Shown here piece by piece: positions 1 to 56,626 of a stretch of 64,000 bases of DNA (positions within the stretch are counted from its first letter, which is position 1; every line of letters starts with the position of its first letter). The notes beneath the pieces are model-generated. The model made no database searches, was not told where the DNA came from, and was given only the letters and a program-made list of their open reading frames with translations. Made by a program: the position numbers and the translations under genes. Source of the stretch: an uncultured Granulosicoccaceae bacterium (GTDB taxonomy: Bacteria > Pseudomonadota > Gammaproteobacteria > CALCKW01); NCBI GenBank assembly GCA_937965695.1, contig CALCKW010000006.1, forward strand, positions 37,717-101,716, in the 5' to 3' direction.

Positions 1-60
1 TCCCAGCAATGAACATCAAGGCCTGCTTTTGCCTTTGTTTACGGTTTTTGGAGAGTCGGT

Positions 61-564
61 ATGAAACTAGTCATCGCGTTTACGCTGCTGGGCCTCAGTG
101 CTCAGATAGGTGATCTACAAGCGAGAGAGCCTGCAAACTTTTTTAAACCTTGGGGCTCCTTACAGGGGCACAATCAGGCAACAGTTCCAAGTACACCCGA
201 TAAGTATCATCAGCAGCCACCACACAAACAATCGCACCACAACATTGACTGGCGACACGCATCTTTGCATCGAGCCGATGAGAAAATCCATCGCTTAGAA
301 CGTCAGAAAGAAAATGTCATTCGTATACTTAAGCGAGCACGCAAGCTACACGCTAGCAGCCATCAAATTCGGAAGATAAAACGCAATTTACATCGCGTAA
401 ATAAGCAGCTGCACCAAGCGAGACGCGATTATCGGTATTTGCTGTACGCACACTCGGGCACTCGCCGCCCTCAACACTGGCAATCAACAGGCTTATATCA
501 CACGCATCGACATGCCGATAGACCGACGCAAAGAAGCAGACTGACTAAGGCCCAATACAAATAA
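61..564 (+). CDS. Hypothetical secreted protein, very basic and His-rich, with an N-terminal signal peptide
   Basis: 167-aa ORF. N-terminus MKLVIAFTLLGLSAQIGDLQA looks like a Sec signal peptide. The remainder is rich in H/R/K/Q and I recognise no catalytic motif. I do not recognise a family. Confidence 0.4.
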   Translation: MKLVIAFTLLGLSAQIGDLQAREPANFFKPWGSLQGHNQATVPSTPDKYHQQPPHKQSHHNIDWRHASLHRADEKIHRLERQKENVIRILKRARKLHASSHQIRKIKRNLHRVNKQLHQARRDYRYLLYAHSGTRRPQHWQSTGLYHTHRHADRPTQRSRLTKAQYK

Positions 565-595
565 CCTCACGCTTTTACAGTCAGGTCATCGCAAC

Positions 596-2652: not shown

Positions 2653-3434
2653 TACTCGATCTCCTCGCCAATGCCACGTTCAGCCATGCCCGCAAGCACC
2701 TCAGCCGTGTGGAAAACACGCAGATCAGTGCCTTCTCGTCGGGCGCGGCCCGATAAATTGAGCAGACAACCGAGGTCACCACCCAGTAAGACGTCAGCCC
2801 CCGTCGCTTTGGCATTTGACAATTTATCGCTACCAATACGCGCAGAGATTTCAGGGTATTTGACGCAGAATGTGCCACCGAAGCCACAACAAACTTCCGT
2901 GTCTTCCATCTCTACAACTTCAAGCCCAGCAACGCCTTGTAACAATGTGCGCGGTTGCTCTTTGACACCCATTTCCCGAAGGCTCGAACAACTGTCGTGG
3001 TAGGTCGCGTTTGCATTGAATTGCGCGTTGAGCGCTGTGGGCTGCAGGCCCCTGACATCCACTAGGAAGCTCATCAGCTCATGCACTTTGTCGGCGAAAG
3101 TCGCAGCCCGAGCCGCCCAGTCCGGATCATCAGCTAGCAATTTGGGGTAGTGACATTTGAGCGTGCCAGCACATGAACCACTGGGAGCAACAACATAGTC
3201 GTAGTCTTCTAGCGCAGCGATCGTCTGTCGGGCCAGCGCGGCTGCTGAGTCAAAATCACCGTTGTTAAAGGCTGGCTGGCCACAACATGTTTGAGTGGCA
3301 GGCACATCGACATCGCAACCAGCTAATTCCAACAATTTGATCGCGGCAAAGCCGACGCTGGGGCGTTGCAAATCGACGAGGCAGGTGACAAAAAGACCAA
3401 CTTGTGATTTGACGCCCGATGAATCTACACTCAT
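2652..3434 (-). CDS. lutA: Lactate utilization protein A (LutA/YkgE), Fe-S oxidoreductase with cysteine-rich CCG domains
   Basis: 260 aa. Two CCG-type motifs (TCCGQPAFNNGD and VCCGFGGTFCVKYP) are characteristic of the GlpC/YkgE/LutA family. It is the first gene of the operon. Confidence 0.8.
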   Translation of the reverse strand: MSVDSSGVKSQVGLFVTCLVDLQRPSVGFAAIKLLELAGCDVDVPATQTCCGQPAFNNGDFDSAAALARQTIAALEDYDYVVAPSGSCAGTLKCHYPKLLADDPDWAARAATFADKVHELMSFLVDVRGLQPTALNAQFNANATYHDSCSSLREMGVKEQPRTLLQGVAGLEVVEMEDTEVCCGFGGTFCVKYPEISARIGSDKLSNAKATGADVLLGGDLGCLLNLSGRARREGTDLRVFHTAEVLAGMAERGIGEEIE

Positions 3435-3497
3435 GCAGTTTTTCTCCCTTTGTTGCTGACATGCTAGCGCGCCCTTCAGTTAGCTCAAAGAAAAACA

Positions 3498-3516
3498 CAA
3501 TTGGTCAGACCAATTG
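3498..3516. promoter_or_regulatory. Perfect 19-bp palindrome CAATTGGTCAGACCAATTG in the lutA/regulator divergent intergenic region; candidate GntR/FadR-family operator
   Basis: Read directly from the sequence. It lies between the lutA start (3434) and the regulator start (3576). The core TGGTCAGACCA matches the t.GT-N-AC.a architecture of FadR-subfamily operators. Confidence 0.5.
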
Positions 3517-3575
3517 AATCAGTAGAAAAATCATGGTGCAATAACGAATGAGCCTTTAACGCATGGAAAGACCGG

Positions 3576-4262
3576 ATGCCGCAGCCCACCAATCTTCAGC
3601 AACTGGAAGAATTTATAGTCTCAGAGCGCTGGCCGCCGGGTAGAAAATTGCCCGCTGAGCGCACGTTGGCTGCTCAACTTAATTGCTCTAGAGCTGCGCT
3701 GCGAGAGTCGCTGCAATGCTTGCGAACTCGAGGGTTAGTCACCAGCAAGCGCGGCGCCCGTAGTGTTGTGGCAAGCGCTAGCTCCTCAACCCTACCCACC
3801 TTATTAAAGCAATCTCCTCAAAGTCGGCAAGATTTATTAGCGGTGCGATCTGCTCTGGATGCGCTGGCCGCTGAAGGTGCGGCCAAACAAGCCACAGGCA
3901 AGGAGCTTTCCGGCATTCGGCATTTGCACCGACGCTTTGCAGCTGCCGTTGCGCGCCAAGACCAGGCGGCGATGGCCAAATACGACACCGATCTGCATTT
4001 GGCGATTACCGGTGCCTCTCATAACAAGGTACTGCTTGAAATAGTGCGTCATTTACGCGAGACATTGAAAGCGAGTATTGCTATCTCCTCGGAGCGGCTT
4101 TTTGAACAAACCAATTTCGGCAGTGTAGTGGTCGAGCAGCACGGGGAGATAGTCGCTGCGATTGCCCGCCGGGACCCACAAGCGGCAAATGCCGCTGCAA
4201 AGCGGCACACAGCCGCAGTCTCTCATCGTCTTCTCGCTTTAAATGGCGAGACTGATAGCTAA
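3576..4262 (+). CDS. GntR-family transcriptional regulator (FadR/FCD subfamily), likely LutR/LldR-like regulator of the adjacent lut operon
   Basis: 228 aa. N-terminal winged HTH (RKLPAERTLAAQLNCSRAALRESLQCLRTRGLV) with a C-terminal helical FCD-like domain. Transcribed divergently from lutABC. Confidence 0.75.
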   Translation: MPQPTNLQQLEEFIVSERWPPGRKLPAERTLAAQLNCSRAALRESLQCLRTRGLVTSKRGARSVVASASSSTLPTLLKQSPQSRQDLLAVRSALDALAAEGAAKQATGKELSGIRHLHRRFAAAVARQDQAAMAKYDTDLHLAITGASHNKVLLEIVRHLRETLKASIAISSERLFEQTNFGSVVVEQHGEIVAAIARRDPQAANAAAKRHTAAVSHRLLALNGETDS

Positions 4263-4312
4263 AGCGAACGTCAGCACTCTGCAGTGCAGTCGCTTATCGC
4301 CGACAAAAGGGT

Positions 4313-4843
4313 ATGCGTATACTACTTTTGTTGTTTCTTTGGCTACCGTTATGCCCCTCTTTGGGAGCAGTAGAGCTCTTTGGCGTAAATCTAAGCAACG
4401 CGAACAAAGGTAGTTTGGGCCTTGCGGCACGCGCAGCTGGCGCCAAACTGCTCGACAGTGAAAGGCCAGAAGTGTTTGAAGCATTTGATAGCTCTGAAGT
4501 TTTATCGGAGAGCCAGCGGTTGTATCTGGGTTTTGATGCTCAGGATAACGGCTTTGCCTTTGCTGAATATCACATCAATTTGACGTCACACCGACAAATG
4601 CTGGCCAAGCTTAAACGCAAGTACGGCGAGCCGCTGAAAAAGAAAGGTAAATTCATCAGTGATCAGCTTTATAGATGGCAGCAAGACGGCATTTCTATTT
4701 CTTACCAGCGACAATTTGGCTGCCGTTGCAGCGCTCTCCGGTACGAACTGCCGGCTAAAGTCGAAATTATTCGCCAACAACACGCGCAGGTTCAAAAGCA
4801 GCGTCTAGAAGAAGATCTTGCAAAGCAACAAAACGCCTATTAA
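4313..4843 (+). CDS. Hypothetical secreted protein
   Basis: 176 aa. N-terminal signal peptide MRILLLLFLWLPLCPSLGA. No recognisable motifs. Confidence 0.4.
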   Translation: MRILLLLFLWLPLCPSLGAVELFGVNLSNANKGSLGLAARAAGAKLLDSERPEVFEAFDSSEVLSESQRLYLGFDAQDNGFAFAEYHINLTSHRQMLAKLKRKYGEPLKKKGKFISDQLYRWQQDGISISYQRQFGCRCSALRYELPAKVEIIRQQHAQVQKQRLEEDLAKQQNAY

Positions 4844-4884
4844 GTGCAGCATGTCAGGCTCCGCTTTAGCGCGCTGCTCCAACT

Positions 4885-5322
4885 TCAAGCCAAAAACGAT
4901 CCTTGCAGGCTAAAAATCAACTCCCGGTGATGGGGTTGATAGCGATGCTCCCACACATATATGCCTTGCCAAGTGCCGAGCATAAGCTTGCCGCTCATCA
5001 CAGGTACGCTCAAGGTAGTCTGCGTCAAAGCAGAGCGAATATGAGCAGCCATATCGTCTGGACCCTCATAGTCATGGCGATAACGGGCATCGCCATCTGG
5101 GGCAAGGGCAGCAAAAACCGTTTCAAGGTCGTGACGAACGTCTGGATCTGCATTCTCCGTGATTAGCAGCGAAGCACCTGTGTGTCTTATAAACACGTGA
5201 CACAAGCCCTCTACCAATCGCTGCTCTTGGATCAACTGCTGCGCAAACTCAGTAATTTCGGTAAAACCCCGACCATGGGTATTTATCGTTCTACTCTGTT
5301 GTACCACTCGGGCTACACTCAT
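4885..5322 (-). CDS. YjbQ/UPF0047-family protein (secondary thiamine-phosphate synthase-like)
   Basis: The C-terminal 140 aa (…HTGASLLITENADPDVRHD…HIRSALTQTTLSVPV…GTWQGIYVWEHR) match the YjbQ family. I trimmed the start to MSVARV at 5322; the 196-aa ORF-track version (to 5475) probably over-extends. Confidence 0.55.
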   Translation of the reverse strand: MSVARVVQQSRTINTHGRGFTEITEFAQQLIQEQRLVEGLCHVFIRHTGASLLITENADPDVRHDLETVFAALAPDGDARYRHDYEGPDDMAAHIRSALTQTTLSVPVMSGKLMLGTWQGIYVWEHRYQPHHRELIFSLQGSFLA

Positions 5323-5379
5323 GTTTTGATCCCGGCTATTCATGACGGGACACTCTGTTGCAACTGAGGAAGTTGGAAA

Positions 5380-6369
5380 ATGGGCACCTTCAGTGTTTTT
5401 GTCATTGTCATTTTGATTTTGGCAGCGATTGTCGTGATTGCGGCGGCCAAAGTGGTCCCGCAAGGTGAAGAGCATACCATCGAGCGATTGGGGCGGTTTA
5501 CCCGCACAATCAAACCAGGGTTAAGGCTTATTCTGCCATTTGTTGACCAAATTGGGCACAAGGTCAACATGATGGAAACCGTCTGTGATGTGCCCTCTCA
5601 GGAAGTGATCACCAAAGACAACGCCATGATCACCGTAGACGGTGTCGTCTACTTCCAAGTACTGGACGCCGCCAAGGCCTCTTACGAAATCAACGACCGA
5701 GTTGCCGCCATTATCAATCTCACTACCACTAACATACGAACAGTGATGGGTAGCATGGACTTAGATGATCTACTATCGAACCGAAATTTGATCAACGAGC
5801 GTCTTTTACGAGTCGTGGATCAGGCCACCCAACCTTGGGGAGTCAAAGTCACACGTATTGAAATTAAAGACATTAACCCGCCCAAGGAAATGGTTGACGC
5901 CATGGCTCGCCAGATGAAAGCAGAACGAGAAAAGCGCGCAAATATACTGGATGCGCAAGGCAGCAGAGAGGCAGCAATACTACGTGCAGAAGGTGAAAAA
6001 CAAGCAGCGATTTTACTTGCTGAAGGCCAACGTGAGGCATCTTTCAGGCAAGCAGAAGCTCGCGAGCGTGAGGCAGAAGCCGAAGCAAAGGCTACTCAAA
6101 TGGTGTCAGAAGCGATAAGTGGTGGCGATGTGCAAGCGCTCAACTATTTTGTGGCGCAAAAATACGTGGGCGCTCTAGAATCCGTGGCCAGCGCTGAAAA
6201 CGGAAAAGTCGTCTTCTTACCTCTTGAAGCCACCGGTTTACTGGGTGCCATAGGTGGGATCGGAGAACTGACCAAGGGAGCATTAACCGGTTTGAACCCA
6301 GCGGCACCTGCGCACGCTGGGACTTCAACCAAAGCCGCATCTATCAGCAAGACTGATTTAGAGGTTTAG
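5380..6369 (+). CDS. SPFH/band-7 (stomatin/prohibitin-like) membrane protein, QmcA/YbbK-like
   Basis: 329 aa. N-terminal TM helix followed by an SPFH domain, then a coiled-coil EA-rich region. Followed 3 bp later by an NfeD-family gene. Confidence 0.8.
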   Translation: MGTFSVFVIVILILAAIVVIAAAKVVPQGEEHTIERLGRFTRTIKPGLRLILPFVDQIGHKVNMMETVCDVPSQEVITKDNAMITVDGVVYFQVLDAAKASYEINDRVAAIINLTTTNIRTVMGSMDLDDLLSNRNLINERLLRVVDQATQPWGVKVTRIEIKDINPPKEMVDAMARQMKAEREKRANILDAQGSREAAILRAEGEKQAAILLAEGQREASFRQAEAREREAEAEAKATQMVSEAISGGDVQALNYFVAQKYVGALESVASAENGKVVFLPLEATGLLGAIGGIGELTKGALTGLNPAAPAHAGTSTKAASISKTDLEV

Positions 6370-6371
6370 TT

Positions 6372-6818
6372 ATGCTGGAAATGACGGAGATCACCTATTG
6401 GCACTGGCTAATTTTAGGCACTGTGCTGATGATCCTGGAAGTACTCAGCTTTACAGCGATTCTCATGTGGGCAGGTGCTGGGGCATTATTCACCGCTCTA
6501 CTCGTTTTTTTGCTCCCTGGAACGAGCTGGCAAATGCAAGTACTCAGTTTTTCGGTTTCAACCGTGTTTTTACTGGCTATAACGCGTTTTTGGATTCTGC
6601 GAAGAGATATCACTAGCGAGCAACCAACGCTTAACCGCCGCGGTGAAAGCCTGATTGGCCAAACCCATGCTCTCAAAGACGCGATCACATCAGGACAAGG
6701 CCATATTAATGTCCACGACACGATCTGGCAGCTACGCGGGCCTGATTTACCTGCAGGCACACTTATAAAGATAATAGCTATTGAAAACAACACTCTACGT
6801 GTTGAAATTGCAGACTAA
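6372..6818 (+). CDS. NfeD-family membrane protein (YbbJ-like), partner of the upstream SPFH protein
   Basis: 148 aa. N-terminal TM helices followed by a C-terminal OB-fold-like soluble part. This is the canonical stomatin operon partner. Confidence 0.7.
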   Translation: MLEMTEITYWHWLILGTVLMILEVLSFTAILMWAGAGALFTALLVFLLPGTSWQMQVLSFSVSTVFLLAITRFWILRRDITSEQPTLNRRGESLIGQTHALKDAITSGQGHINVHDTIWQLRGPDLPAGTLIKIIAIENNTLRVEIAD

Positions 6819-6825
6819 ATCTTGC

Positions 6826-7530
6826 TCAGTGCGCCGTTTTAGAGGCGATAATGCTGTCATCTAGGCGCTGGTCTCTGGTTAGCCCGGCCAAACGCTGTCG
6901 CGTGTTGTAGTCGAGCGCATCGGTGTCTAGATTACGCAATTTCTCGACATCAACCACGCCATGGCTAAAAGTCGCGAGGGCCTCAACAATTATTTGCATC
7001 GCGCTCAGACGATCCCGCCCATTGATCATCGCCTGCCGCAATAAGGTTTCTATCTGCACTCGATCTGCCGACTGCGGAGCTTCATAGTCACTTATCGACT
7101 GAGGCATCGAAGATATTTTCCTCACAAGACCGCTGACCATCAAGGCGATAGTGTCCTGTACCGCGGCCAGGTCGACGCGAAGCTGTTCAGCGTTCTCCCA
7201 GCGATTATTCGCCAATCCATCAAAAATGCCGCGAACTTCCGCGATTGTCCGCTTTGCTCCCTCTCCCAATTGCTGAATATTTTTATCTTGAGAACCCGTG
7301 AGAAGAGCCAATTCTTGTAATTCTTCAGCTGCTAGTTGCAGACCACGACCCACAGCTCCAGCTCTAGCAGCCTCAAGGGCCGTCAGTTGGGCAACTAAAG
7401 TTGTTCGAGCGGCCGCGGCTGCCACGTCTTCCCCCGCTGAAGTGCAAGGATCGAATTTGACAGCAAGTTCTTCAATTAATTGAGATAAACGCATGAAAGT
7501 TGGTGCAGCTCCGCGGTGATGGACGACCAC
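6826..7530 (-). CDS. Hypothetical Ala/Leu-rich, probably coiled-coil protein
   Basis: 234-aa ORF with no recognisable motif. The start is uncertain: MRLSQL at 7494 is an alternative, and there is no strong RBS at either candidate. Confidence 0.35.
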   Translation of the reverse strand: MVVHHRGAAPTFMRLSQLIEELAVKFDPCTSAGEDVAAAAARTTLVAQLTALEAARAGAVGRGLQLAAEELQELALLTGSQDKNIQQLGEGAKRTIAEVRGIFDGLANNRWENAEQLRVDLAAVQDTIALMVSGLVRKISSMPQSISDYEAPQSADRVQIETLLRQAMINGRDRLSAMQIIVEALATFSHGVVDVEKLRNLDTDALDYNTRQRLAGLTRDQRLDDSIIASKTAH

Positions 7531-7654
7531 CTTAGATCAAACACGCACGACTTCTCGGCGATCCAAACAAGGCTTAACCTTGGTAGCGACCCAACAAACC
7601 GCTTGCTTTAGTCTGTCGACATCGAGAGTACTAAAACGACAAGACGCGTACAGG

Positions 7655-8119
7655 TCAGCGCTTGCGACGAGCTTTAAAAAAGGCTTGCAGTACTTCTCGG
7701 CAATCCGGTTCGAGAATCCCGCCAATAGCATTAACTTGATGGTTATGGGCGGAGGAATCCAATAGTTTTAGCTGGCTCGTTACAGCACCTGAACGGAACT
7801 CACTTGCACCGTAGACAAGCGTGTCTATTCGCGCATGAACCATCGCGCCCACGCACATTGTACAAGGCTCAAGTGTTACATAGAGTTGACAACCGACCAA
7901 ACGATAGTTCCCGAGCTGTATTGCGGCGTCACGCATGGCCTGTATTTCTGCGTGAGCGGTCGGATCACACTTCCCAATAGGTTGATTGAAGCCTCTGCCA
8001 ACTATTTTATCGCCAAGTACAACTACAGCCCCAACCGGAACCTCATCCACTGCTTGTGCGTCTCTCGCGAGTGCTAAGGCCTCGTTCATCCAGTCATCGT
8101 GCGTCATATAATTACTCAT
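7655..8119 (-). CDS. tadA: tRNA-specific adenosine deaminase TadA
   Basis: 154 aa with the CDA-fold zinc motifs HAEIQAMR and LYVTLEPCTMCVGAM. Confidence 0.85.
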   Translation of the reverse strand: MSNYMTHDDWMNEALALARDAQAVDEVPVGAVVVLGDKIVGRGFNQPIGKCDPTAHAEIQAMRDAAIQLGNYRLVGCQLYVTLEPCTMCVGAMVHARIDTLVYGASEFRSGAVTSQLKLLDSSAHNHQVNAIGGILEPDCREVLQAFFKARRKR

Positions 8120-8540
8120 ATGGATCAGGAATAAAAAAAAAAGTTAATTGTCATTGTTACTTTTTCATCGTGATTCGATTGTTCGTTGTTTCTTTCCTGC
8201 GTCATCTGCTCTACGACATTATGACACTGTGATGCATGTCTCATTCAATCATAACTTTATTTTTCATAAGCTTATGGAAGCTATCAACAAATAATTTGAA
8301 AAACCTATTCAAGATGTTTGATAGTCCGAAGAATGCTAAATCGATGTCAACACTTTTTTCATTAATTAATCCCCTACTTTCGTAACCAGATCTCTATTGC
8401 GACTGCGCTAACAAACTCGCACAATCGAGTTCACGGTGTGATGCATTCGGGAAGCACATCACATTTTGTTGTCAAAACTCGCTTTAGAGTGTGCTCTACA
8501 TTGACCCTCTATCTAAGCCGCGCGAGAAACAACGTACTAG

Positions 8541-9605
8541 TTGGTTAATTTGAATATTTGTAAGAAGAGGTCAGTTGCAGTGAAAACTATTTTGGTAACA
8601 GGTGGCGCGGGATTCTTAGGCTCACATCTATGTGATGAGCTGCTCAGCCACGGCCACAGAGTTTTGTGCCTTGATAACTTGAGTACAGGAAGTCTCAAGA
8701 ACATAGAACACAACCTTGGTGACGACGACTTTCAATTTTTGAATCATGACATTGTCGATCCGATAAAATTGCCACCAAGCTTTCAAGATCTGGATCAAAT
8801 TTATAATTTGGCTTGCCCGGCAAGCCCCGTTCACTATCAGAGTGACCCAATCAAAACGACGAAGACCTGTGTACACGGGGCAATAAATGTACTGGATCTT
8901 GGTCTCGAGACTGGAGCGGTCGTTTTTCAAGCCTCTACCAGTGAAGTCTACGGCGATCCGGCGCAACACCCGCAGCCAGAGTCCTACTGGGGCAATGTGA
9001 ACACGATTGGCCCTCGTTCTTGTTACGACGAAGGAAAACGTACTGCTGAGTCACTGTTCTTTGACTACCACCGATTCCACGGTGTGCCCATAAAGGTTGT
9101 GCGTATTTTCAACACTTATGGCCCGCGCATGGCCCATGATGATGGAAGAGTTGTTTCAAATTTCATCGTGCAAGCGCTTAAAAATAAAGATATTACACTG
9201 TACGGAAACGGTAGTCAGACTCGTTCTTTTTGTTATGTCGACGACCTCATCAGTGGCTTCATAGCCATGATGGATACACCTGAGACTGTCATTGGCCCAG
9301 TCAACTTGGGTAATCCAGGCGAATTCAATATGAACGAGCTGGCAACAGCTGTCATCGAATTGACTGGTAGTGACTCTGAATTACTCTACTGTGAACTGCC
9401 CAAAGATGACCCAAAAATGCGCAAGCCTGATATCACCAAAGCGACTAACTTGCTGGGCTGGCAGCCAAAAATCAAGTTGCAAATTGGTTTAGCAAAAGCC
9501 ATCGAGCACTTTAGAAAAGAGCTTGGCCTAGACGGTCTGGAAGATCAGCCCGAAGAGTATGCCAAGCAAGTGGATAACGTAATGGATATCGCGAATGCAA
9601 ACTGA
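8541..9605 (+). CDS. UDP-glucuronate decarboxylase (UDP-xylose synthase, UXS/ArnA-C-terminal-like SDR)
   Basis: [34 protein letters not shown] is the hallmark N-terminus of UXS-type NAD-dependent epimerase/dehydratases. The true start may be the GTG near 8580. First gene of the polysaccharide locus. Confidence 0.75.
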
Positions 9606-9661
9606 CCACTCAAAACAGTCCTTCCACGTCAATATGCCCTTTTTAGCAAGCTAATTTAAGT

Positions 9662-11902
9662 ATGGAAATGAAAGCGATTCAATACACCGCACCGGTTGGC
9701 CCGCAAATCACCGCACCTGCGACAAGTGATACGCGTGAGCTTGTGCGAATACTGAAACGCAATAAATGGGGCTTTGTTACTGCGCTTCTGTTGGGCCTTC
9801 TTCTCGCTTGGCTATACCTTTTGACAACGACTAATGTCTATCAAGCCGATGCATTGTTAAGAGTTGCCTCGACATCAAGTGCTGACGACATCATTGATGC
9901 TTCAAACCCGTCGAACGGTAACTTCGTCCCTCTTATAAAAGAAGAGAGCGAGCTCATTCGTTCTCGCGAAGTGTTAGAACCGGTTGTTAAATCAGGTCGT
10001 TTGCAAGTTGTGGTGGAGCCACTAGAGATGCCGGTGCTTTCTGAGCTGTCAAAGCGATGGCCGAGTCTGCAGTTTTGGCTTGAAGCTCAACCAGACGCTC
10101 AGGCGTACGCATGGCGAGAGACGCACCTTGAACTCAGTGAGCTAAATGTTCCCGACGCTTGGCAAAATAAAGAACTGCGCTTGTTTGCGCTAGGCGATAG
10201 TCACTACTCAGTTTATGACGAAGACACTGTCGTTATCGAAAAGGCTCTAGTGGGGCGTACCGCAAGTGCTCGGGCCTTTGGTAATCAGCTATTAGATTTG
10301 CGTGTTGAGCGTTTAGAGGCTGAGCCTGGAACGGTTTTCACCATTACCTTTAAGTCTTTACAAAACTCTCTCACTGAATTGCGAGACGCCTTAACGATAG
10401 AAAGTAGCGATGCCACTTCACGAGTTTTATCACTTTCTCTACGAGGAGAAGATCCGCAGACGACAGCTGATCTGCTAAACGCGATTGCCAACAAATACAG
10501 TGATGTGAAACTGGGGTGGGAGAGTAAGTCTTTCCGTAGCGAATTGAGCTTTTTTGAGCAACGCTTACCCGAATTAAAAACAGGAATGCAACGCGCTGAA
10601 GCACGTTTGAGACGCTATCAACAACGCAACAATTCAGCGGTAGGTACCAGCGCTCAGACAAATGCGCTCGTGCAACGGCTGGCAAATGAAGAATCAAAAC
10701 TGCTCGAGCTTGAACGCGAGCGACAAGAGCTACGTGAAAGGTACACCCGTTTACATCCTTCGGTAGCGAAGCTCGACAAAGAGATATCGACTTACCGCTC
10801 TACAATCACGAGTTTGCAAGAACGCATTCCCAACATTGCTCGCGTCTCATTCGATCTGGGGCCCTTGCAACGTGATGTTGAAGCTTCTCGAAAGCTTTAC
10901 ACAGAGCTCAATGAAAAAGCACAACGCCTTCGTTTGGCCCAGGCGAATACTGTCGGAAGCGTGCAGATCGTTGACTTGGCTCTACCACAGAACAAACCAG
11001 TGGCTCCTAAGAAAAAACTCGTGTTTGCTCTTGCAGCGTTAGGTGCACTGTTTCTCTATGCATTTTGGGTTCTAATACGCGCTTCATTCAGCAGCACGAT
11101 CGATGACGACGTCGCCTTGGCCCGTCATTCTGGTTTGCCTGTGTTCATGAATATTCCGCGCAGCGAGGCACAACGTCAATTTCGCCACCCTGGGAAAACG
11201 ACTGCAAAACGTGGCGACCTGCTGCCCGCTGGTAGCCATGAAGTTTTGGCAATTCGCGAGCCTGAAGACTTTTCGGTTGAGAATCTTCGTGGACTACGCT
11301 CCATGCTGAGCGATCTAATGTACAACTCGCGCAACAATATTCTGATGATTTGTAGCCCATTACCCGCCATGGGTAAGTCCTTTGTGAGTATCAATCTCGC
11401 GGTGTTATTGGCGCAATCTGGAAAGCGCGTGTTGCTGATTGATGCCGACTACCAACGTGGCTATATTCACAAAACTTTTGCTATTGAAGGTGGCCCAGGT
11501 CTGGTAGACGCTGTAGCAGGCGTCGCGCGTGCGGCTAAGGCCGTAAAAACGACAGGTGTACCGAATTTGTATGTTCTACCACGTGGGCATCATTCGGATG
11601 AAATGCACAGCAGTGCTCCTAATGAAGGTGATTTACAATCCTTTTTGTCTCGTATCACGCCAGCTTTTGACATCGCCATTATAGATACGCCGCCTATCTT
11701 GAGTGTAGCCACAGCCACCACCATTGGCCGCGCTGCCGGTACAACATTGTTGGTTGTCAAAGAGTCTGAGGTTAAAGAGCAGCAACTTAAAGAGAGCATC
11801 CGTCGACTTCAATATGCGGGTGTTAGCGTCAATGGTTGCATCCTCAATGCTTCAAGCCAGTCCGCTAGCCACTACGCCTATTACAAAGACCGGATGGACT
11901 AG
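9662..11902 (+). CDS. Polysaccharide co-polymerase / BY-kinase (Wzc/ExoP/EpsG-like PCP-2a tyrosine autokinase)
   Basis: 746 aa. Wzz-like periplasmic and coiled-coil region between two TMs. C-terminal Walker-A ATPase (PLPAMGKSFVSINLAVLLAQSGKRVLLIDAD) and a Tyr-rich tail (SASHYAYYKDRMD). Confidence 0.85.
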   Translation: MEMKAIQYTAPVGPQITAPATSDTRELVRILKRNKWGFVTALLLGLLLAWLYLLTTTNVYQADALLRVASTSSADDIIDASNPSNGNFVPLIKEESELIRSREVLEPVVKSGRLQVVVEPLEMPVLSELSKRWPSLQFWLEAQPDAQAYAWRETHLELSELNVPDAWQNKELRLFALGDSHYSVYDEDTVVIEKALVGRTASARAFGNQLLDLRVERLEAEPGTVFTITFKSLQNSLTELRDALTIESSDATSRVLSLSLRGEDPQTTADLLNAIANKYSDVKLGWESKSFRSELSFFEQRLPELKTGMQRAEARLRRYQQRNNSAVGTSAQTNALVQRLANEESKLLELERERQELRERYTRLHPSVAKLDKEISTYRSTITSLQERIPNIARVSFDLGPLQRDVEASRKLYTELNEKAQRLRLAQANTVGSVQIVDLALPQNKPVAPKKKLVFALAALGALFLYAFWVLIRASFSSTIDDDVALARHSGLPVFMNIPRSEAQRQFRHPGKTTAKRGDLLPAGSHEVLAIREPEDFSVENLRGLRSMLSDLMYNSRNNILMICSPLPAMGKSFVSINLAVLLAQSGKRVLLIDADYQRGYIHKTFAIEGGPGLVDAVAGVARAAKAVKTTGVPNLYVLPRGHHSDEMHSSAPNEGDLQSFLSRITPAFDIAIIDTPPILSVATATTIGRAAGTTLLVVKESEVKEQQLKESIRRLQYAGVSVNGCILNASSQSASHYAYYKDRMD

Positions 11903-12522
11903 TGAGCGGGTATATTACAAACCATCCCAAGCATCGCATGCCGATGAGCAAGCGCGCCTTGGATTTGGCTATTACCGTACCTGCCATTGTGTTGCTGTCC
12001 CCTTTTCTAGCCATTACAGCACTGTGCATCAAGCTTGATAATCCTGGCCCAGTGCTGTTTAAACAAAAGCGTTATGGTTTGGGTGGCAGCATTTTTCACG
12101 TTTATAAATTTCGCAGCATGAGCTTTCAACCTGACGCGGAGTTTGTACAGGCTAAAAAGAACGATGCGCGTGTGACCCGCGTTGGTGCGGTGATAAGACG
12201 AACAAGCATTGACGAACTTCCCCAGCTTTTTAATGTACTCAAGGGAGAGATGTCTTTGGTAGGACCGAGACCTCACCCACTTTCTTTGGATGATGACTAC
12301 CGCCAATGCATTCCTGAACTAATGAAGCGCTACGGTGCTACGCCAGGGATTACAGGCTGGGCACAAATCAATGGACTTCGTGGAGAAACCCGAACTGTTG
12401 AAGACATGCAAGCACGAATCAATCACGATCTCCAGTACATCGCAACACGAAATACGATGATGGACATTCGCATTGTATTGCGGACGGCCATCGGCGGTTG
12501 GACAGATCCAAATGCCTATTAA
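11902..12522 (+). CDS. Initiating sugar phosphotransferase (bacterial sugar transferase family, WbaP/PglC small form)
   Basis: 206 aa. LKLDNPGPVLFKQKRYG…FRSM…DELPQLFNVLKGEMSLVGPRP is the polyprenyl-phosphate hexose-1-P transferase catalytic domain. An alternative start is the ATG at 11938. Confidence 0.8.
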   Translation: MSGYITNHPKHRMPMSKRALDLAITVPAIVLLSPFLAITALCIKLDNPGPVLFKQKRYGLGGSIFHVYKFRSMSFQPDAEFVQAKKNDARVTRVGAVIRRTSIDELPQLFNVLKGEMSLVGPRPHPLSLDDDYRQCIPELMKRYGATPGITGWAQINGLRGETRTVEDMQARINHDLQYIATRNTMMDIRIVLRTAIGGWTDPNAY

Positions 12523-13282
12523 ATCTCCTCTGACAAACGTTAGCTTGCTTGGCTTCAAATCCCATTTGGGCACTTGTGTGGACTATTTGCAGCACTTGAA
12601 AAACATTGTTGAAACAAACTCAACCACAACTGTGCTTGCGCATAACCTGCATTCGCTGCATCTCTATTACCGATCATCTAGTCTCAGGCAATGCTATCTG
12701 AACAGTGTCAATATGGTTGATGGGATGCCAATCATTTGGTTGCTGAAGCTAGCCGGTAAGAAAGCTTCGACAGAACAACGCCTAACTTATGTCGACTTTA
12801 TTTGGCCGCTGTTAGAGCAAGCACAAGAGCAAAACTGGCGTGTATGTCATATTGGGCAATCGAGTGAAGTGCAACAAAGGGCAATCGGGAAGATAAAAAA
12901 ACGACTGCCAAATCTAGAACTATTAGGCATACCCGGTTATTTCGATCAACAGCAGAACAGCTCGGAGACCCATACGGTTATTGCGGAAGTCAATAAATTC
13001 GCACCACAATTGTTGTTAGTTGGCCTCGGCAGCCCTCTTCAAGAGCACTGGATTGATCAGCACCGTAGCCAGTTGCACGTCCCTGCGGTTCTCAGTTGCG
13101 GTGCCTGTATGGAATACGTTGCCGGTGATGTTGGCACACCACCCCGATGGATGGGTAGAACAGGACTAGAATGGAGCTATAGGTTTTTTGAAAACCCCAA
13201 GCGTTTTGCTGGGCGTTATTTGATAGAGCCGTGGGGGCTTATGTTCTCTATGCTCAGGTATCGACTAAGTGGCCACCGCTGA
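12512..13282 (+). CDS. WecB/TagA/CpsF-family glycosyltransferase
   Basis: The ORF-track start at 12473 lies within the previous gene. The ATG at 12512 overlaps the upstream stop and fits better. Family assigned from the central region (ICHIGQSSEVQQRAIGKIKKRLPNLELLG…). Confidence 0.65.
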   Translation: MPIKSPLTNVSLLGFKSHLGTCVDYLQHLKNIVETNSTTTVLAHNLHSLHLYYRSSSLRQCYLNSVNMVDGMPIIWLLKLAGKKASTEQRLTYVDFIWPLLEQAQEQNWRVCHIGQSSEVQQRAIGKIKKRLPNLELLGIPGYFDQQQNSSETHTVIAEVNKFAPQLLLVGLGSPLQEHWIDQHRSQLHVPAVLSCGACMEYVAGDVGTPPRWMGRTGLEWSYRFFENPKRFAGRYLIEPWGLMFSMLRYRLSGHR

Positions 13283-14555
13283 ACAACTCCGCCCACCTTT
13301 CCACACTTTGGTCACAATGCTTAGAAAGCTATTCAGCTCGCGGTTGACCAAGGCACTCAGTGGGCAAGCGCTAGTCAGCATCTTCCATTTCTCTATCAAC
13401 TTGTTATTGTTGCCTTTGCTCGCACCCTACGACTACGGTGTATTTGCTTTGAGCTTCGTATTGGCGATGTTCGCAGCGGCTATCAACAATGCTTTGATTT
13501 CGACACCACTTTCCATTTACACCCCCATCATCAAGACCGTTGAAGAACGGCAGAAACAAGAAGCTCTTTTTAATGCACTGAATACGTTGTTCTTTATCGG
13601 GGTCATTTCAGCAGGCATTTTGTTCGCGTTAAGAGAGCACTCAATGGCGCTGCCAGTGGCACTCTTTGTAGCCAGCTATGCAACGCGGCAGTTTAGTCGC
13701 AGCTTCGCCTACGCTCGTCTCAAAGCCGAAGTCCCTGCTCGAGCCGACACACTCTATGTCATCGTATCTATCATCGGCACCGCCCTTTCTATTACTTTTC
13801 TCGGGGCATCTGCGACCCCAGCGATTCTGCTATCGCTGGCTGTTGGCAATACTGCTGCAACTCTGCTGGAGTTTTACCAGTTGAAGGATGCTTGGCGTTT
13901 GCCTTCATCTTTCAGAGCATTGCTCGCATACAAATTATTATGGCCACAAACACGCTGGGCCCTCATCGGGGCATTCACCACACTGCTGATGGGTCAAGCG
14001 CACAGCATAATCGTATCCAGTAGTTTTGGCCCTTCTGCCTTTGCTCCACTTGCTGCAGGTGGCGTTTTATTCGGCCCTATCAGAGTGGCTCTGACGACCT
14101 GGCAAAATATGAGTAAGCCGCAAATGGCGATCGATCTAGACGCCAAACGCTTTTATGCGGTGAACCAAACTATACGCCGAGCGACCTTGGTCTTGAGCGT
14201 GACTTTGTGCCTAGTCGCTGCTGCACTCTGGTTATTCTGGCCAGTGATTCACGACCTACTTTATGCAAAAAAGTACGGCGATGAACCCATGTGGTTTATC
14301 GTTTCACTGTGGACCATCATTACCTTGTTTTTTACCTTGAATGCACCTGTGGCGGCAGCACTCCAAGCGCTCGCTGATTTTAAAGTATTAGCAATCGCCA
14401 GTATTTTCGGATCAATACTCAGCATCGCAATTGTAATCACTCTGTTGTTTAGCAATGGACCCGCGAGCACTCTCTACGGAGCTATCGCAGCAGAAATCTT
14501 TATGACGGCATATCTCTTTTACAACCTAAGCCGCAGTTTTGCACGCCAACAATGA
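13269..14555 (+). CDS. Polysaccharide biosynthesis membrane protein, probable Wzx-like flippase (MOP/MATE-like)
   Basis: 428 aa, highly hydrophobic with many predicted TM helices. Located in a Wzy-dependent-type locus. Confidence 0.55.
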   Translation: MATAEQLRPPFHTLVTMLRKLFSSRLTKALSGQALVSIFHFSINLLLLPLLAPYDYGVFALSFVLAMFAAAINNALISTPLSIYTPIIKTVEERQKQEALFNALNTLFFIGVISAGILFALREHSMALPVALFVASYATRQFSRSFAYARLKAEVPARADTLYVIVSIIGTALSITFLGASATPAILLSLAVGNTAATLLEFYQLKDAWRLPSSFRALLAYKLLWPQTRWALIGAFTTLLMGQAHSIIVSSSFGPSAFAPLAAGGVLFGPIRVALTTWQNMSKPQMAIDLDAKRFYAVNQTIRRATLVLSVTLCLVAAALWLFWPVIHDLLYAKKYGDEPMWFIVSLWTIITLFFTLNAPVAAALQALADFKVLAIASIFGSILSIAIVITLLFSNGPASTLYGAIAAEIFMTAYLFYNLSRSFARQQ

Positions 14556-15466
14556 AGCTCGCCATTTGCATTTGTACGCATCAACGTCCGGCAGGATTGC
14601 TTCGACTGTTGAAGTCACTTGAAACATTGGCTGGCCAAGTGCAGTTTGCAATCTTCGTTGTCGACAACCATCAGGATGCCGAGGGTTTAAAAGTAATTGA
14701 GGAAATACAAAAGTCCGGTTACTCGGTAGCGATACAGGGTGAACAGGTGCTCGACGGCGGCATTAGTCAGGCGCGCAACCATGTGCTGCAAATGGCAATC
14801 AATGCAAATGCACAGTTCGTGGCATTCATTGATGATGATGAATGGCCAGAAGCTAGCTGGTTAGATGAACTCATGCGGGTTCAAGCCATCGACGATGCGG
14901 ATGCGGTTGGTGGTCCAACTAAAGCAGTGTTTGAAGCAGACATATCGAATGCATTTGCTTCGTGCCCCTACTACGGCGCCGATTTAAACCTTCCTGACAA
15001 CGCCATATGCGAGTTACAAGCCTGTGGCAATGTGTTGCTGAAACTACAGACAATCGCAAAGCTCGGTCAGCCCTATTTTGATCCAGCTCTTGGGCAAAGC
15101 GGTGGTGAGGACTTAAAGTTTTTTATGCGCTTAAAAGCTGCTGGCTTAAATATGCGATGGGCGGCACAAGCGACAGTCTTTGAAACCGTCCCACCTTCTC
15201 GCAGTACACTTAAATGGCTAAAGCACCGTGTGGCACTTATTGCTAATACGCGAGTACATATCATGCAGCAACTTCAACCCGGCTTGCTTTCGACAGCACT
15301 GCGCTGGATAAAAACTTTAGCGCTTGGCAGTCAGGCCGCCAGTTATCAAATGCTCGCCCTCATTAGGCCTGATGCTCAATTTAACGCGCAACTTTACAGT
15401 GCCAAATTTAATGGTAAGATTCGCGCGCATTTTGGTCAACGACTTGCTCGTGGAGAGAATCACTGA
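14552..15466 (+). CDS. Glycosyltransferase family 2
   Basis: N-terminal KLAICICTHQRP with an acidic FIDDDEWP motif (DXD-like), typical of GT-A fold GT2 enzymes. Confidence 0.7.
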   Translation: MKLAICICTHQRPAGLLRLLKSLETLAGQVQFAIFVVDNHQDAEGLKVIEEIQKSGYSVAIQGEQVLDGGISQARNHVLQMAINANAQFVAFIDDDEWPEASWLDELMRVQAIDDADAVGGPTKAVFEADISNAFASCPYYGADLNLPDNAICELQACGNVLLKLQTIAKLGQPYFDPALGQSGGEDLKFFMRLKAAGLNMRWAAQATVFETVPPSRSTLKWLKHRVALIANTRVHIMQQLQPGLLSTALRWIKTLALGSQAASYQMLALIRPDAQFNAQLYSAKFNGKIRAHFGQRLARGENH

Positions 15467-16417
15467 ATGAACAGCCTGCCAAAATTTTCAGTGATAATTC
15501 CTACCTATAACAGAGCGCAGAGACTGTGCCACACTTTGCAATCAGTGTTAAACCAGGAGTTTGAGAATTTTGAGATCATCGTCATTGATGACGGCTCTGA
15601 CGATGGCTCTGAGGAATCATGCTCGGCATTAGATGATCCGCGTATCCGATATCACTGGCAAGAAAATGCGGGACCCGCTGCCGCGCGGAACAACGGCGTT
15701 AGTCGCGCGACTGGACAATACATTGCCTATCTCGATTCGGATGATCGCTGGCACAAGGATTACCTGAAAGATACCGCTAAGCAACTCGAAAATATAGCCA
15801 CGAACAGTTTCCTTTATGGACAAATTGTAGTGGACCGTGGTGTCGACAAATACTGGATTAAACCAGCTCGTGCCAAATCTGACACTGAGAGTATTTTTGA
15901 CTATCTCTACGTACACAGTGGCTTCATGCAGACCAGTACTTTGATTGTGCCAGCTGAAATAGCGCGACGTGTAAGCTGGGATGAGACCATCACTTTTGGC
16001 GATAATGACCAATACGCGATTGACCTTTGCCAGAGCGGTTCGAACGCAGTGATGCAGGATCGACCGCTGGTTTGGTATCTCGATATAGACAGCGGTGATG
16101 CGTTATCGCAACTGTATATTCACGACGCAAAATCACAGCGCTACCAACGATTTTTCCAGTGGATGGAGAATCACTACAGCTCCATGTCGGTGCAAGCACG
16201 CGCTGGATTTGAAGCACATTTTTTATCGGGAATTTATGCTTGGCGATCGCCACTGAGGTCGTGGAAGTTGTTATGGCACGCACGCCAATCCGGTACTATC
16301 GGCACGGCAGGAATGTTGCGTCAGTTACTGCAAAACTATGCACCAAAAATATATCGAAAGATGACCAACTTCTATGTGAGCATACGTGGTCTTTCGCTGT
16401 CTAAGACCCACTTCTGA
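15467..16417 (+). CDS. Glycosyltransferase family 2
   Basis: FSVIIPTYNRAQRL…FEIIVIDDGSDDGS… is the canonical GT2 N-terminus. Followed by YLDSDD. Confidence 0.8.
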   Translation: MNSLPKFSVIIPTYNRAQRLCHTLQSVLNQEFENFEIIVIDDGSDDGSEESCSALDDPRIRYHWQENAGPAAARNNGVSRATGQYIAYLDSDDRWHKDYLKDTAKQLENIATNSFLYGQIVVDRGVDKYWIKPARAKSDTESIFDYLYVHSGFMQTSTLIVPAEIARRVSWDETITFGDNDQYAIDLCQSGSNAVMQDRPLVWYLDIDSGDALSQLYIHDAKSQRYQRFFQWMENHYSSMSVQARAGFEAHFLSGIYAWRSPLRSWKLLWHARQSGTIGTAGMLRQLLQNYAPKIYRKMTNFYVSIRGLSLSKTHF

Positions 16418-17718
16418 TGCACACATCACAGCAACAACTCGCGTATTCAGCTAGACACACCAATACACCGATTGCAATTGCACTCTGGGTTTTTATTATT
16501 CTAATGGGTTCCAGTGGGCTCAAAGAGCCCGTGATCTATTTTGTCCCCGCAGCGACACCAGGCCTCACCGTCGCCTGGCTCGGTTTATACGCCATCGCTA
16601 CATTAGCTTTGTTTCGACAAAACGGCATCGGTTGGATCTATTGGCTTTTTCGGTACCGCCTGCTACTCACATTGGCTTTAATTGGGGCCGCATGTTCGGC
16701 CTTTTGGGCGGTGGACATGAACCTAAGTTTACAACGAAGCGTGCACTTAATAGGTTGCAGTCTTTTGGCCGTCTACATCGGTTTTGCCCTCAGCCTGGCA
16801 GTGTTACTTAGAACACTGCTTTGGACCGCAGGCGCTACATTGGCTGTCTCTTTGATGATGGTTTATGCCCAACCAGAACTCGGTATACACGCCTACGAAG
16901 GAGATTTAGTGTGGCGAGGGATTTTTGCTAACAAGAATTCATTAGGCTTTTTTTGCACAATGACAGTCGCACTTTCGATATGCCTTTTGCCCAAAGAAAC
17001 ATCTTGGAAAATGACTTTTTTAATCGGTCTGATTACCGTGTTGGGCATAGTCTCCTTGTTCCAATCGAAGTCAGCGACTTCAGTATTATCGTTATTCACT
17101 GGGCTGAGTGTTGCTGGAATTATCGTCACCGCACAAAGACTAAGGCTGGGGCTTGCACAACAGGCTTTGCTCGCAATTCTTGCGAGCGCCACTGTGATTT
17201 TGCTCATTCAGTCGATAGATACGCACTGGCTTAATTCCCTTTTGGGAAGGACTGGCAACCTCACCGGCCGTGGTGAAGTGTGGGCACAAACGTGGGCATT
17301 GATTCTAGAACGCCCACTTGGGGGATACGGCTATGGCAACCTATGGAACCCCACTGAAAGCACTATTTGGATACAAAAAACTTATACTAATTTCAGCTGG
17401 ATTGTGTACCACGCACACAACGGGTTTTTACAAATAGCTTCAGAAATCGGTTTAGTGTTGGCGACGATTGCGGTATTTTTCGTACTCCAACAATTGCTGG
17501 AAAGCATCCACTGCCAGAATCAACAACCCAAAAAAGAGTCCTTGTTTGTCGTGGTATTTTCCGTCGCGTTTCTGCTGAGCAATTATTCCGAAGCCAGAGC
17601 TATGATTGATCGCGATATTTTTTGGATTCTCTTCCTCGCCATGCCTATCAGCCTGTTGTTGCATCCTCCCCACCCTGAGCCGCTTCCTGAACCGACCTCT
17701 AACGGTCATTTGGTTTAA
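16417..17718 (+). CDS. O-antigen ligase/polymerase-family membrane protein (Wzy-like)
   Basis: 433 aa with about 10 or more TM helices and a large periplasmic loop. It sits at the position of wzy in the locus. Confidence 0.6.
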   Translation: MHTSQQQLAYSARHTNTPIAIALWVFIILMGSSGLKEPVIYFVPAATPGLTVAWLGLYAIATLALFRQNGIGWIYWLFRYRLLLTLALIGAACSAFWAVDMNLSLQRSVHLIGCSLLAVYIGFALSLAVLLRTLLWTAGATLAVSLMMVYAQPELGIHAYEGDLVWRGIFANKNSLGFFCTMTVALSICLLPKETSWKMTFLIGLITVLGIVSLFQSKSATSVLSLFTGLSVAGIIVTAQRLRLGLAQQALLAILASATVILLIQSIDTHWLNSLLGRTGNLTGRGEVWAQTWALILERPLGGYGYGNLWNPTESTIWIQKTYTNFSWIVYHAHNGFLQIASEIGLVLATIAVFFVLQQLLESIHCQNQQPKKESLFVVVFSVAFLLSNYSEARAMIDRDIFWILFLAMPISLLLHPPHPEPLPEPTSNGHLV

Positions 17719-17888: not shown

Positions 17889-18317
17889 ATGCTCGAATCG
17901 CGCATCGGTCGTCGTCAATTTCTAGCCGCACTATTCTTGACGTGCAGCTCGGTCGCTGCTGCTGAAGGAGAAAAACTGAGTGTTACTTTTGCCTACAATG
18001 CTGTCATTTCTGAGCAGTTGTTACTGATAGATATTCGCACTCCCAACGAATGGCGCCGTACAGGCATACCAGTGGGTGCTTACGGAATCGACATGGATTC
18101 GAAGGAGTTCTATCCAGAACTAAGAGCCCTCGCTGAACAATACCCAAATCGAAAAATCGCTCTGATATCAACCACTGGTGGACGCTCCGCATACCTAGCG
18201 CGATACCTTGCAAGGCAAGGAGTTCTAGTTTACGACGTGCCGGGTGGAATCGTTGGAAAATCAACGAGTTGGAAATCAAAAAACCTACCTTTTTATAAAT
18301 ACCGCTCGCCCTTATAA
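17889..18317 (+). CDS. Rhodanese-domain (sulfurtransferase-like) protein with signal peptide
   Basis: 142 aa. The LLLIDIRTPNEWRRTGIPVGA motif is rhodanese-like. The catalytic Cys position is not obvious, so it may be an inactive or single-domain form. Confidence 0.55.
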   Translation: MLESRIGRRQFLAALFLTCSSVAAAEGEKLSVTFAYNAVISEQLLLIDIRTPNEWRRTGIPVGAYGIDMDSKEFYPELRALAEQYPNRKIALISTTGGRSAYLARYLARQGVLVYDVPGGIVGKSTSWKSKNLPFYKYRSPL

Positions 18318-18608
18318 AGCTTACCCTTCCCTCTTGTTGCCTCAATCTCGGCGATCCTCTAGCGTCATTATTTTCGCTGAATTTCCATCGACTAAAGCTC
18401 GTTAAGCCTAACTACTTGCTTATCGGCCACTGTAATAAATAATGCGTGGACCGTCTAAGAAAGCCAGGTTTTGACATTCATCCGCAATCGCACTGAAAAA
18501 GAACCATCTGATACTAATCTCATGTAGTATTAATATGCACTTTCTCTTAAGTTATCCTTTCACCGTGCCGTCAATGAATTATATATTTACTACAAACACG
18601 GTGAACTT

Positions 18609-18890
18609 ATGGAGAATAAAGGCCAATTCAAGAAAGTTTTAGCGGCTGCTATCGTGGCGACGGCTCTCGTGCCTACAGTACAAGCAGCAGAGACTTGGGA
18701 TACTTTTACACGCAATCCCGATAGAATCATGCCCAATCCAGGGATGCTCCTGTCCGACTTAAAGCACTTCTACGGCGAACCAGCCATGACCCACAACACA
18801 ATTGGTCAGTCCGACGCTGAAGTTTGGGACTACGGTACCTTCCGCACCTTCATCGCTGACGGTATGGTGCAAAGAAGCAAACTTTGGTAA
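18609..18890 (+). CDS. Small secreted hypothetical protein
   Basis: 93 aa. Signal peptide KKVLAAAIVATALVPTVQAAETW. Preceded by an AT-rich promoter-like region. Confidence 0.4.
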   Translation: MENKGQFKKVLAAAIVATALVPTVQAAETWDTFTRNPDRIMPNPGMLLSDLKHFYGEPAMTHNTIGQSDAEVWDYGTFRTFIADGMVQRSKLW

Positions 18891-18892
18891 CC

Positions 18893-19260
18893 AAAGCTGC
18901 TATTTTAGCCGACGAGTCCCTTGCAACCTTTTGAGTTGTGGGACTCCATAAAAGCGATCCAAAAGCTGCTATTTTCTAAATAGTCTTGGCATCAACTCGA
19001 ACAGTAAAATGTGGGGTTTTCCTCCCCTGTTCGCCTGTTTACCCAAGCGATTGCCAGTTCTGATTGGCTAGGGAGCCTCATATCAAGTCATGCTCTCACC
19101 GTCGACGGGCCAGATTTGGCCCGGCTGAGTTGCAAATCTAGCCAATATCAGCACTATAGCCGTCGATTCGCGCTTTGGCTGGGTCCAAAATTTTCAAGCC
19201 GATTCTAGACCGGACTTAATCTGAGGCTCCCTAGTCGCCTACTCAGTGCTGTGTTAGCCT
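18893..19260. repeat. Structured non-coding region with direct and nested inverted repeats (possible MITE-like element or sRNA)
   Basis: Direct repeat AAGCTGCTATTTT at about 18893 and 18963 flanks the hairpin GAGTCCC…GGGACTC. A larger inverted repeat GCTAGGGAGCCTCA (19068) / TGAGGCTCCCTAG (19222) encloses the CGGGCCAgattTGGCCCG hairpin and a CCGTCGACGG palindrome. No convincing ORF. Confidence 0.35.
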
Positions 19261-19405
19261 AAAGTAGTTGAAACCAGCGAAACTAGCACATGCCAAAAGC
19301 ACGTCACATCAGCCCAAATTTTTGCCTGCCAAAAACGAAACAACGGGGTAAAGGCATACAGCGCACACTTCATCTACTTGTGTTATCTCTAAGTGATATC
19401 TGCAC

Positions 19406-56617: not shown

Positions 56618-56626
56618 GGCACAGAG

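Follow-up and report, generated by a model that had tools for sequence, protein, structure and literature searches.

Gene content and organization of the locus

We analyzed a 64-kb stretch of DNA (hereafter called the window) from a marine Granulosicoccaceae bacterium, scanned its open reading frames (ORFs) of at least 120 aa, and describe here a polysaccharide biosynthesis locus located at 8580-17718. The locus consists of eight co-directional ORFs on the plus strand, which encode, in order, a UDP-glucuronate decarboxylase (UDP-xylose synthase, UXS), a Wzc-type tyrosine autokinase of the polysaccharide co-polymerase (PCP) 2a class, a small initiating phosphoglycosyl transferase (PGT), a GT26 (WecG/TagA/CpsF family) glycosyltransferase, a Wzx-type flippase of the MOP superfamily, two GT2 glycosyltransferases, and a Wzy_C-family membrane protein. 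The ORFs abut or overlap (junctions at 11902/11902, 14552/14555, 15466/15467, and 16417/16417), and the sole gap measures 56 bp. On the two sides the locus is bordered by a tadA-like deaminase gene on the minus strand (7655-8119) and a rhodanese gene (17889-18317). Both flanks have a housekeeping character, with lutABC, a GntR regulator, SPFH/NfeD, and tadA upstream, and rhodanese, SulP, and M32 peptidase genes downstream. The eight genes form a single tightly packed operon whose product is a polysaccharide of the cell surface or a secreted one. A preliminary description of this DNA had proposed the same gene identities and common orientation, and both are confirmed, the identity of Wzx at the fold level.

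The UXS gene (8580-9605) encodes 341 aa from a GTG codon. Its longest ORF opens at TTG 8541; the GTG start and its ribosome-binding site are conserved in orthologues. The protein matches the human UXS1 structures in PDB (2B69/4GLL) over its full length with E=1.4e-110, compared with 1.4e-41 for the next non-UXS short-chain dehydrogenase/reductase (SDR), and its matches to ArnA and UAXS are much weaker. The catalytic motifs (Ser/Thr-Glu, Tyr-x3-Lys, and the Arg of RIFNTYGPR) align with those of the human enzyme, from which the bacterial protein differs by an extra C-terminal tail of ~25 aa. It carries the features of the extended SDRs to which UXS belongs, including GxxGxxG, and among sugar SDRs it is nearest to characterized UXS enzymes. 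Proteins named UDP-glucuronic acid decarboxylase from several phyla are 66-68% identical to it, and bacterial Uxs enzymes are known from Sinorhizobium and Bacteroides. The product of this gene, which is the only nucleotide-sugar gene of the locus, is therefore predicted to convert UDP-glucuronate to UDP-xylose.

In Wzc (9662-11902, 746 aa), WZC_N, Wzz, GNVR, and AAA_31 domains were identified, and the protein matches E. coli Wzc from end to end (E=6e-86). Two transmembrane helices and a large periplasmic domain are predicted, and the kinase motifs AMGKS (Walker A), LLIDADYQRGY, and IIDTPP can be recognized. The Walker A, A', and B motifs and the C-terminal Tyr cluster that characterize PCP-2a autokinases are thus all present. 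The cluster is short (HYAYYKDRMD, 3 Tyr), and its HY[AT]YY core is conserved in two groups of relatives, clade A (the clade of the window) and clade B.

The PGT (11902-12522, 206 aa) has the properties of an initiating polyprenyl-phosphate phosphoglycosyl transferase. It matches PF02397 (Bac_transf, E=8e-62) and, with its C-terminal domain only, TIGR03023 (WcaJ_sugtrans, E=5e-91), and is built of one N-terminal hydrophobic helix and a catalytic domain closest to WcaJ. The GT26 enzyme (12512-13282) matches PF03808 (Glyco_tran_WecG, E=3e-46). Its ORF opens at TTG 12473, and a gene call in a related contig (L004), together with the local sequence, points to ATG 12512 as the likely start, giving 256 aa. 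Both GT2 enzymes match PF00535, one (a, 14552-15466) with E=4e-11 and the other (b, 15467-16417) with E=6e-36. The former shows the lowest conservation of any gene in the cassette, with 53-65% identity in clade A and 36-46% in other lineages.

The Wzx protein (13269-14555, 428 aa from GTG, or 412 aa from an alternative ATG at 13317) had no Pfam or NCBIfam match above threshold (MatE, E=1e-3), and some of its homologues carry PF01943. An AlphaFold (AF2) model built on 39 homologues reached a pLDDT of 92. A Foldseek search with this model returned the lipid III flippase WzxE as the best solved structure (TM-score 0.69-0.72), followed by MATE and MurJ. On this predicted model, the assignment to the MOP superfamily flippases is confirmed at the fold level only. 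The Wzy_C protein (16417-17718, 433 aa) matches PF04932 with 57 bits (cutoff 31.7) and has ~9-10 transmembrane helices according to hydropathy. We infer that it is a Wzy polymerase from its genomic context and from the presence of a separate ligase candidate in a relative, which is considered below.

Conservation among relatives and native composition

Wzc relatives with 77% identity were found in two Granulosicoccaceae metagenome-assembled genomes, and look-ups of Wzx and UXS homologues yielded four further contigs of clade A. The same gene content and the same tadA-flanked site occur in seven clade-A contigs. In contigs L001, L002, L004, L007, and L008, the eight genes stand in the same order beside tadA as far as the contigs extend (L001 ends inside the PGT gene and L008 just after Wzy), and the shorter contig L009 shows tadA-UXS-Wzc. 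In the contigs that reach past the locus (L002, L004, and L007), SulP is located downstream of it. Compared with L004, the locus proteins are ~71% and the flank proteins ~72% identical on average. Locus GC tracks genome GC in the relatives, from 0.49 to 0.69. The GC spread of these syntenic contigs, from ~49% in the window to ~69% in L008 at 65-80% protein identity, is unusually wide for one family-level clade.

The closest relative by UXS identity (81%) is L007. Upstream of its locus (1-6375), this contig carries genes of the lipopolysaccharide (LPS) core, namely a WaaA-like gene, a Kdo kinase gene, a separate Wzy_C gene (439 aa), three GT2 genes, and LptE, in place of lutABC/GntR.

The preliminary description had called the locus an island, lower in GC than the flanking core genes and preceded by an AT-rich leader of about 420 bp. 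A horizontally acquired, strain-variable polysaccharide island would fit the overall GC of the locus (0.475-0.480, compared with 0.514 in the 5' flank), the lower GC of its genes (0.479 vs 0.504 for the other genes of the window, p=0.001), and the leader, which measures 421 bp to the first TTG and 460 bp to the likely GTG and has a GC of 0.367. These figures hold, but the distinctness that they seem to indicate disappears on closer comparison. GC at third codon positions (GC3) is virtually identical between the locus and the rest of the window (0.484 vs 0.486, p=0.87), and the deficit is carried by first positions (GC1, 0.543 vs 0.601), where it reflects amino-acid composition, a pattern that membrane-rich proteins would be expected to show. 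When synonymous codon usage was compared, 26 of 35 non-overlapping control blocks of 8 genes deviated from the rest of the window as much as the locus did or more, and the locus ranked 33rd of 50 blocks by distance in relative synonymous codon usage. The 3' flank (GC 0.488) resembles the locus itself, and the GC of the leader falls among the values of the other intergenic stretches of the window (0.36-0.50). Moreover, no integrase, insertion sequence element, or tRNA was detected at the borders of the locus, the sole tRNA of the window being located at 63.9 kb. In view of the native GC3 and codon usage and of the synteny, the slightly low GC and the AT-rich leader are no sign of an island. The preliminary description had itself set an indistinct GC profile as grounds for refutation, and by this standard its island reading fails.

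Genomic islands are recognized by distinct composition, by variable presence, and by bordering mobility genes or tRNAs. All of these are lacking here, and the seven clade-A contigs are alike in content and site and have diverged at the rate of their flanks. An acquired, strain-variable island is therefore highly improbable. Instead, synteny, flank-like divergence, and native composition argue for vertical inheritance, and the locus is an old, family-conserved one that has been maintained under purifying selection, in contrast to the hypervariability for which O-antigen and capsule islands are known.

Beyond clade A, 175 indexed Wzx homologues were found, the best 120 of which are 44-79% identical; few of these 120 carry organism names, and those that do are assigned to Granulosicoccus or to an unclassified gammaproteobacterium. 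An exhaustive profile search with Wzx returned 204 cluster representatives at E<=1e-30. Granulosicoccus antarcticus IMCC3135 and two other Granulosicoccus contigs (together L003, L005, and L006) share the core Wzc-PGT-GT26-Wzx-GT2-GT2-Wzy in unchanged order with 41-53% identity. There it occupies a different chromosomal site and is followed by an SDR gene and a GH16 hydrolase gene (L003, 14899-16877). This SDR is GalE (E=2e-110 to UDP-glucose 4-epimerase) and is 26% identical to UXS. A third lineage, represented by L011 (GC 62%), has the order Wzc-UXS-large PGT-GT26-Wzx-GT2-GT2-Wzy. Its UXS gene (6597-7583), 61% identical to that of the window at the protein level, lies between Wzc and PGT, and GH16 and polysaccharide deacetylase genes are also found nearby (14732-16691). 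The accessory nucleotide-sugar gene thus differs by lineage, being UXS at the 5' end in the clade of the window, UXS between Wzc and PGT in L011, and GalE at the 3' end in Granulosicoccus proper, which has swapped UXS for GalE. A literature search for Granulosicoccus together with exopolysaccharide (EPS), wza, or capsule found nothing on this locus.

These comparisons also bear on the sugar composition of the product, which had been predicted to include xylose. UXS accompanies the cassette in two divergent lineages, clade A and L011, at different positions, and this association supports a role for UDP-xylose. The prediction is therefore reasonable as a reading of gene content, and the polymer of the window probably contains xylose.

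Export functions and the proposed assembly pathway

Three further functions were looked for, namely an outer membrane polysaccharide export (OPX) protein such as Wza, a low-molecular-weight protein tyrosine phosphatase (LMW-PTP) such as Wzb, and a UDP-glucose dehydrogenase (Ugd). No Poly_export, LMWPc, or UDPG_MGDP_dh domain was found in any of the scanned ORFs of the window, nor in unannotated ORFs (E<=1) or antisense ORFs inside the locus. These ORF scans agree with the earlier statement that the locus lacks Wza, Wzb, and any nucleotide-sugar gene other than UXS. Since the operon boundaries are clear, the wza/wzb genes do not lie just beyond view in the same operon, an arrangement that the preliminary description had named as one that would overturn it.

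Among the relatives, for which ~20-64 kb of DNA were viewed per genome, wza/wzb were not adjacent to the cassette in any of the 11 related loci examined. Unannotated ORFs of ~240-250 aa near the cassette were considered as cryptic Class-3 OPX genes and rejected, as none of them gave a Poly_export signal. No PgaA-like barrel was found near the locus. Of the two options raised at the outset, a split locus or an unusual export route, the consistent absence of adjacent wza/wzb in all 11 loci favors the former, and the split layout appears from this distribution to be ancestral to the cassette rather than peculiar to the genome of the window.

PCP genes do not invariably have OPX genes as neighbors. 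Structures of Wza-Wzc complexes are reported (PMC12881504, PMC13469938). OPX proteins occur widely in Gram-negative genomes and are diverse (PMC9603273, PMC9601211), and a trans-encoded OPX protein is taken here as the default expectation. The OPX, phosphatase, and Ugd genes are most likely located elsewhere in the genome.

The gene identities, the operon organization, the conservation and synteny, the native composition, and the lack of OPX, Wzb, and Ugd genes in the window are direct observations. The explanation that in our judgment fits them best, and that we regard as likely, is a Wzx/Wzy-dependent operon for an exopolysaccharide or capsule, which is conserved and vertically inherited in Granulosicoccaceae and has its OPX, phosphatase, and Ugd partners in trans. 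In such a pathway, UXS would turn UDP-glucuronate, supplied by a Ugd encoded elsewhere, into UDP-xylose. The small PGT would load a hexose-1-phosphate, probably glucose-1-phosphate, onto undecaprenyl phosphate, and the GT26 and two GT2 enzymes would then complete a repeat unit of ~4 sugars, one of them probably xylose. Wzx would flip the lipid-linked unit across the inner membrane, and the Wzy_C protein would polymerize the repeat units. Wzc may govern both polymerization and export by repeatedly autophosphorylating its short HYAYY tail. Finally, an OPX protein would take the polymer from Wzc across the outer membrane and a phosphatase would reset Wzc by dephosphorylation, the genes of both lying elsewhere in the genome.

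Several points weigh against this explanation. OPX, LMW-PTP, and Ugd genes were seen neither in the 64 kb of the window nor within ~10 kb of the cassette in relatives, so the trans-encoded partners have to be assumed. The accessory SDR of Granulosicoccus proper is GalE and not UXS, so xylose is no fixed feature of the cassette product, and the specificities of the glycosyltransferases cannot be read from sequence. In addition, PF04932 spans both Wzy polymerases and WaaL ligases.

The last of these points, along with the absence of a nearby OPX gene in every lineage viewed, would suit an O-antigen or other LPS-linked glycan locus, in which the Wzy_C protein acts as or with a WaaL ligase and the product reaches the surface via Lpt, with no need for OPX. 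However, the chain-length protein here is not a Wzz but a complete Wzc autokinase of the PCP-2a class, whose kinase domain is intact and which ends in a Tyr tail. The flippase and polymerase have also been retained across genera, whereas O-antigen genes are hypervariable. The separate Wzy_C gene in the LPS-core cluster of L007, beside WaaA, the Kdo kinase gene, and LptE, is a better ligase candidate and makes a ligase role of the locus protein less likely. An O-antigen function is therefore unlikely.

The missing wza/wzb genes may alternatively mean that the cassette works without dedicated Wza and Wzb, either by sharing an OPX protein with another pathway or by an undescribed outer-membrane route. 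This idea draws on the fact that the cassette has neither gene as a neighbor in three lineages, which represent three genomic contexts and over which Wzx identity falls to 41%, and on the unusually short and conserved Tyr cluster (3 Tyr). Against it stand the limited ~20-64 kb seen per genome, the wide distribution and diversity of OPX proteins in Gram-negative genomes (PMC9603273), and the presence in Wzc of the complete periplasmic domain with which the E. coli protein docks onto Wza. We consider it rather unlikely. Also improbable is the more far-reaching proposal of a family-wide, Wzc-governed Wzx/Wzy pathway that stands apart from OPX/Wzb genes in at least three lineages, shares its exporter and phosphatase among polymers or uses a new outer-membrane route, and follows a different regulatory cycle reflected in the HY[AT]YY tail. 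The steady separation of the cassette from wza/wzb is a modest curiosity, which would become interesting only if the genomes contained no OPX gene.

Granulosicoccaceae are often found in biofilms on kelp and on other surfaces in the sea. The family-conserved operon is a good candidate for a shared surface-attachment or matrix polymer of this family, and the cassette offers a defined target for genetics in cultured G. antarcticus.

Leader, neighboring genes, and comparison with known systems

The intergenic leader (8120-8579, 460 bp) separates the divergent tadA gene from UXS. As the preliminary description had noted, it contains no JUMPstart or ops element; GGCGGTAG is absent from 8120-8579 at <=1 mismatch. 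An Rfam scan of the window reported tRNA-Met only, with no riboswitch or leader RNA. Over the whole window, GGCGGTAG occurs at <=1 mismatch 59 times, compared with 34.5 expected, a count that no shuffle reached, and never in the leader of the polysaccharide locus; this excess is probably an effect of composition or codons and not of ops function.

Alignments and motif searches revealed a conserved non-coding block of ~100 nt within the leader (8345-8450, plus strand; TTGTCAA ... TTTnGTAAC ... GTTGCGA-N17-CACAAT-CG ... TCAnnnTGTGATGCA). Five of the seven leaders of clade A retain it, one of them with 59% GC, although the GC of these relatives varies widely. In the other two it is degenerate, and it was not found upstream of Wzc in Granulosicoccus. 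The 3' end of the block, TGTGATGCA, occurs three times in the window (0.74 expected), always in intergenic regions, with the further copies at 8228-8236 and 42097-42105. The block is probably a promoter and operator, possibly the target of a regulator, and, as a lead, may stand in for the missing JUMPstart element. Several specific readings of it were tried. A structured RNA was rejected, because RNAalifold gave -9.2 kcal/mol with a positive (unfavorable) covariation term. Sigma-54 and CRP-type readings made by eye were dropped owing to wrong spacing. The sigma-70-like TTGCGA-N17-CACAAT has only 8/12 matches and was not reported by a promoter scan.

Downstream of the locus, a 93-aa ORF (18609-18890) with no family match lies in the 1.1 kb that separate the rhodanese gene from SulP (18318-19405). 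This ORF has counterparts of 51-74% identity in L002 and L004, in the latter of which it is called as a gene; L007 has neither the rhodanese gene nor this ORF between Wzy and SulP. Farther away, at 55046-57604, the window encodes an MBOAT-family membrane O-acyltransferase (AlgI/DltB-like, 523 aa), directly followed by a 325-aa ORF with no family match even at E<=1; the two, 37 kb away from the locus, could act as a pair in polysaccharide O-acylation. A minus-strand cluster at 33808-38238, encoding a 398-aa zinc-ribbon-like protein of no clear family, an SPFH/Band_7_1-GYF protein, TelA, and a Halogen_Hydrol-family protein, looks like a stress or toxic-anion resistance module.

The locus belongs to a well-known kind of polysaccharide system. 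With the colanic acid (wca) and group 1 capsule loci of E. coli it shares a WcaJ-like transferase domain for loading hexose-1-phosphate onto undecaprenyl phosphate, Wzx, a probable Wzy, and a PCP-2a autokinase Wzc, and like the colanic acid locus it is family-conserved and not serotype-variable. It differs from these E. coli loci in lacking the wza-wzb-wzc trio, with wzc standing alone as the second gene, in the small single-domain form of its PGT, and in having UXS as the sole nucleotide-sugar gene. Its Tyr cluster, with three tyrosines, is also smaller than that of E. coli Wzc, which has ~6-7.

A glucose-1-phosphate-type PGT followed by a GT26 enzyme recalls the Xanthomonas gum (xanthan) and Myxococcus xanthus EPS systems, this succession being the GumD/GumM-like logic. 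In NCBIfam, the GT26, GT2, and PGT proteins come closest to EPS_EpsA, EPS_EpsD, and EPS_EpsZ, models that presumably represent M. xanthus proteins; these matches are weak and far below cutoff. In the gum system, the cluster contains its OPX genes or has them alongside. The same is true of Myxococcus EPS, in which the OPX function is organized differently, with a Class-3 OPX protein and a beta-barrel (PMC9603273, PMC9601211). Unlike both systems, the locus of the window has no OPX gene in or near it.

A counterpart in a cultured species is that of G. antarcticus IMCC3135 (CP018632, near IMCC3135_12275), which has the same core order as the window and likewise no wza/wzb within 10 kb. It differs in carrying a 3' GalE-type epimerase gene and a GH16 gene instead of the 5' UXS gene, in its site beside a PLD-like gene, and in the greater length of its PGT (247 aa) and Wzy (566 aa) proteins.

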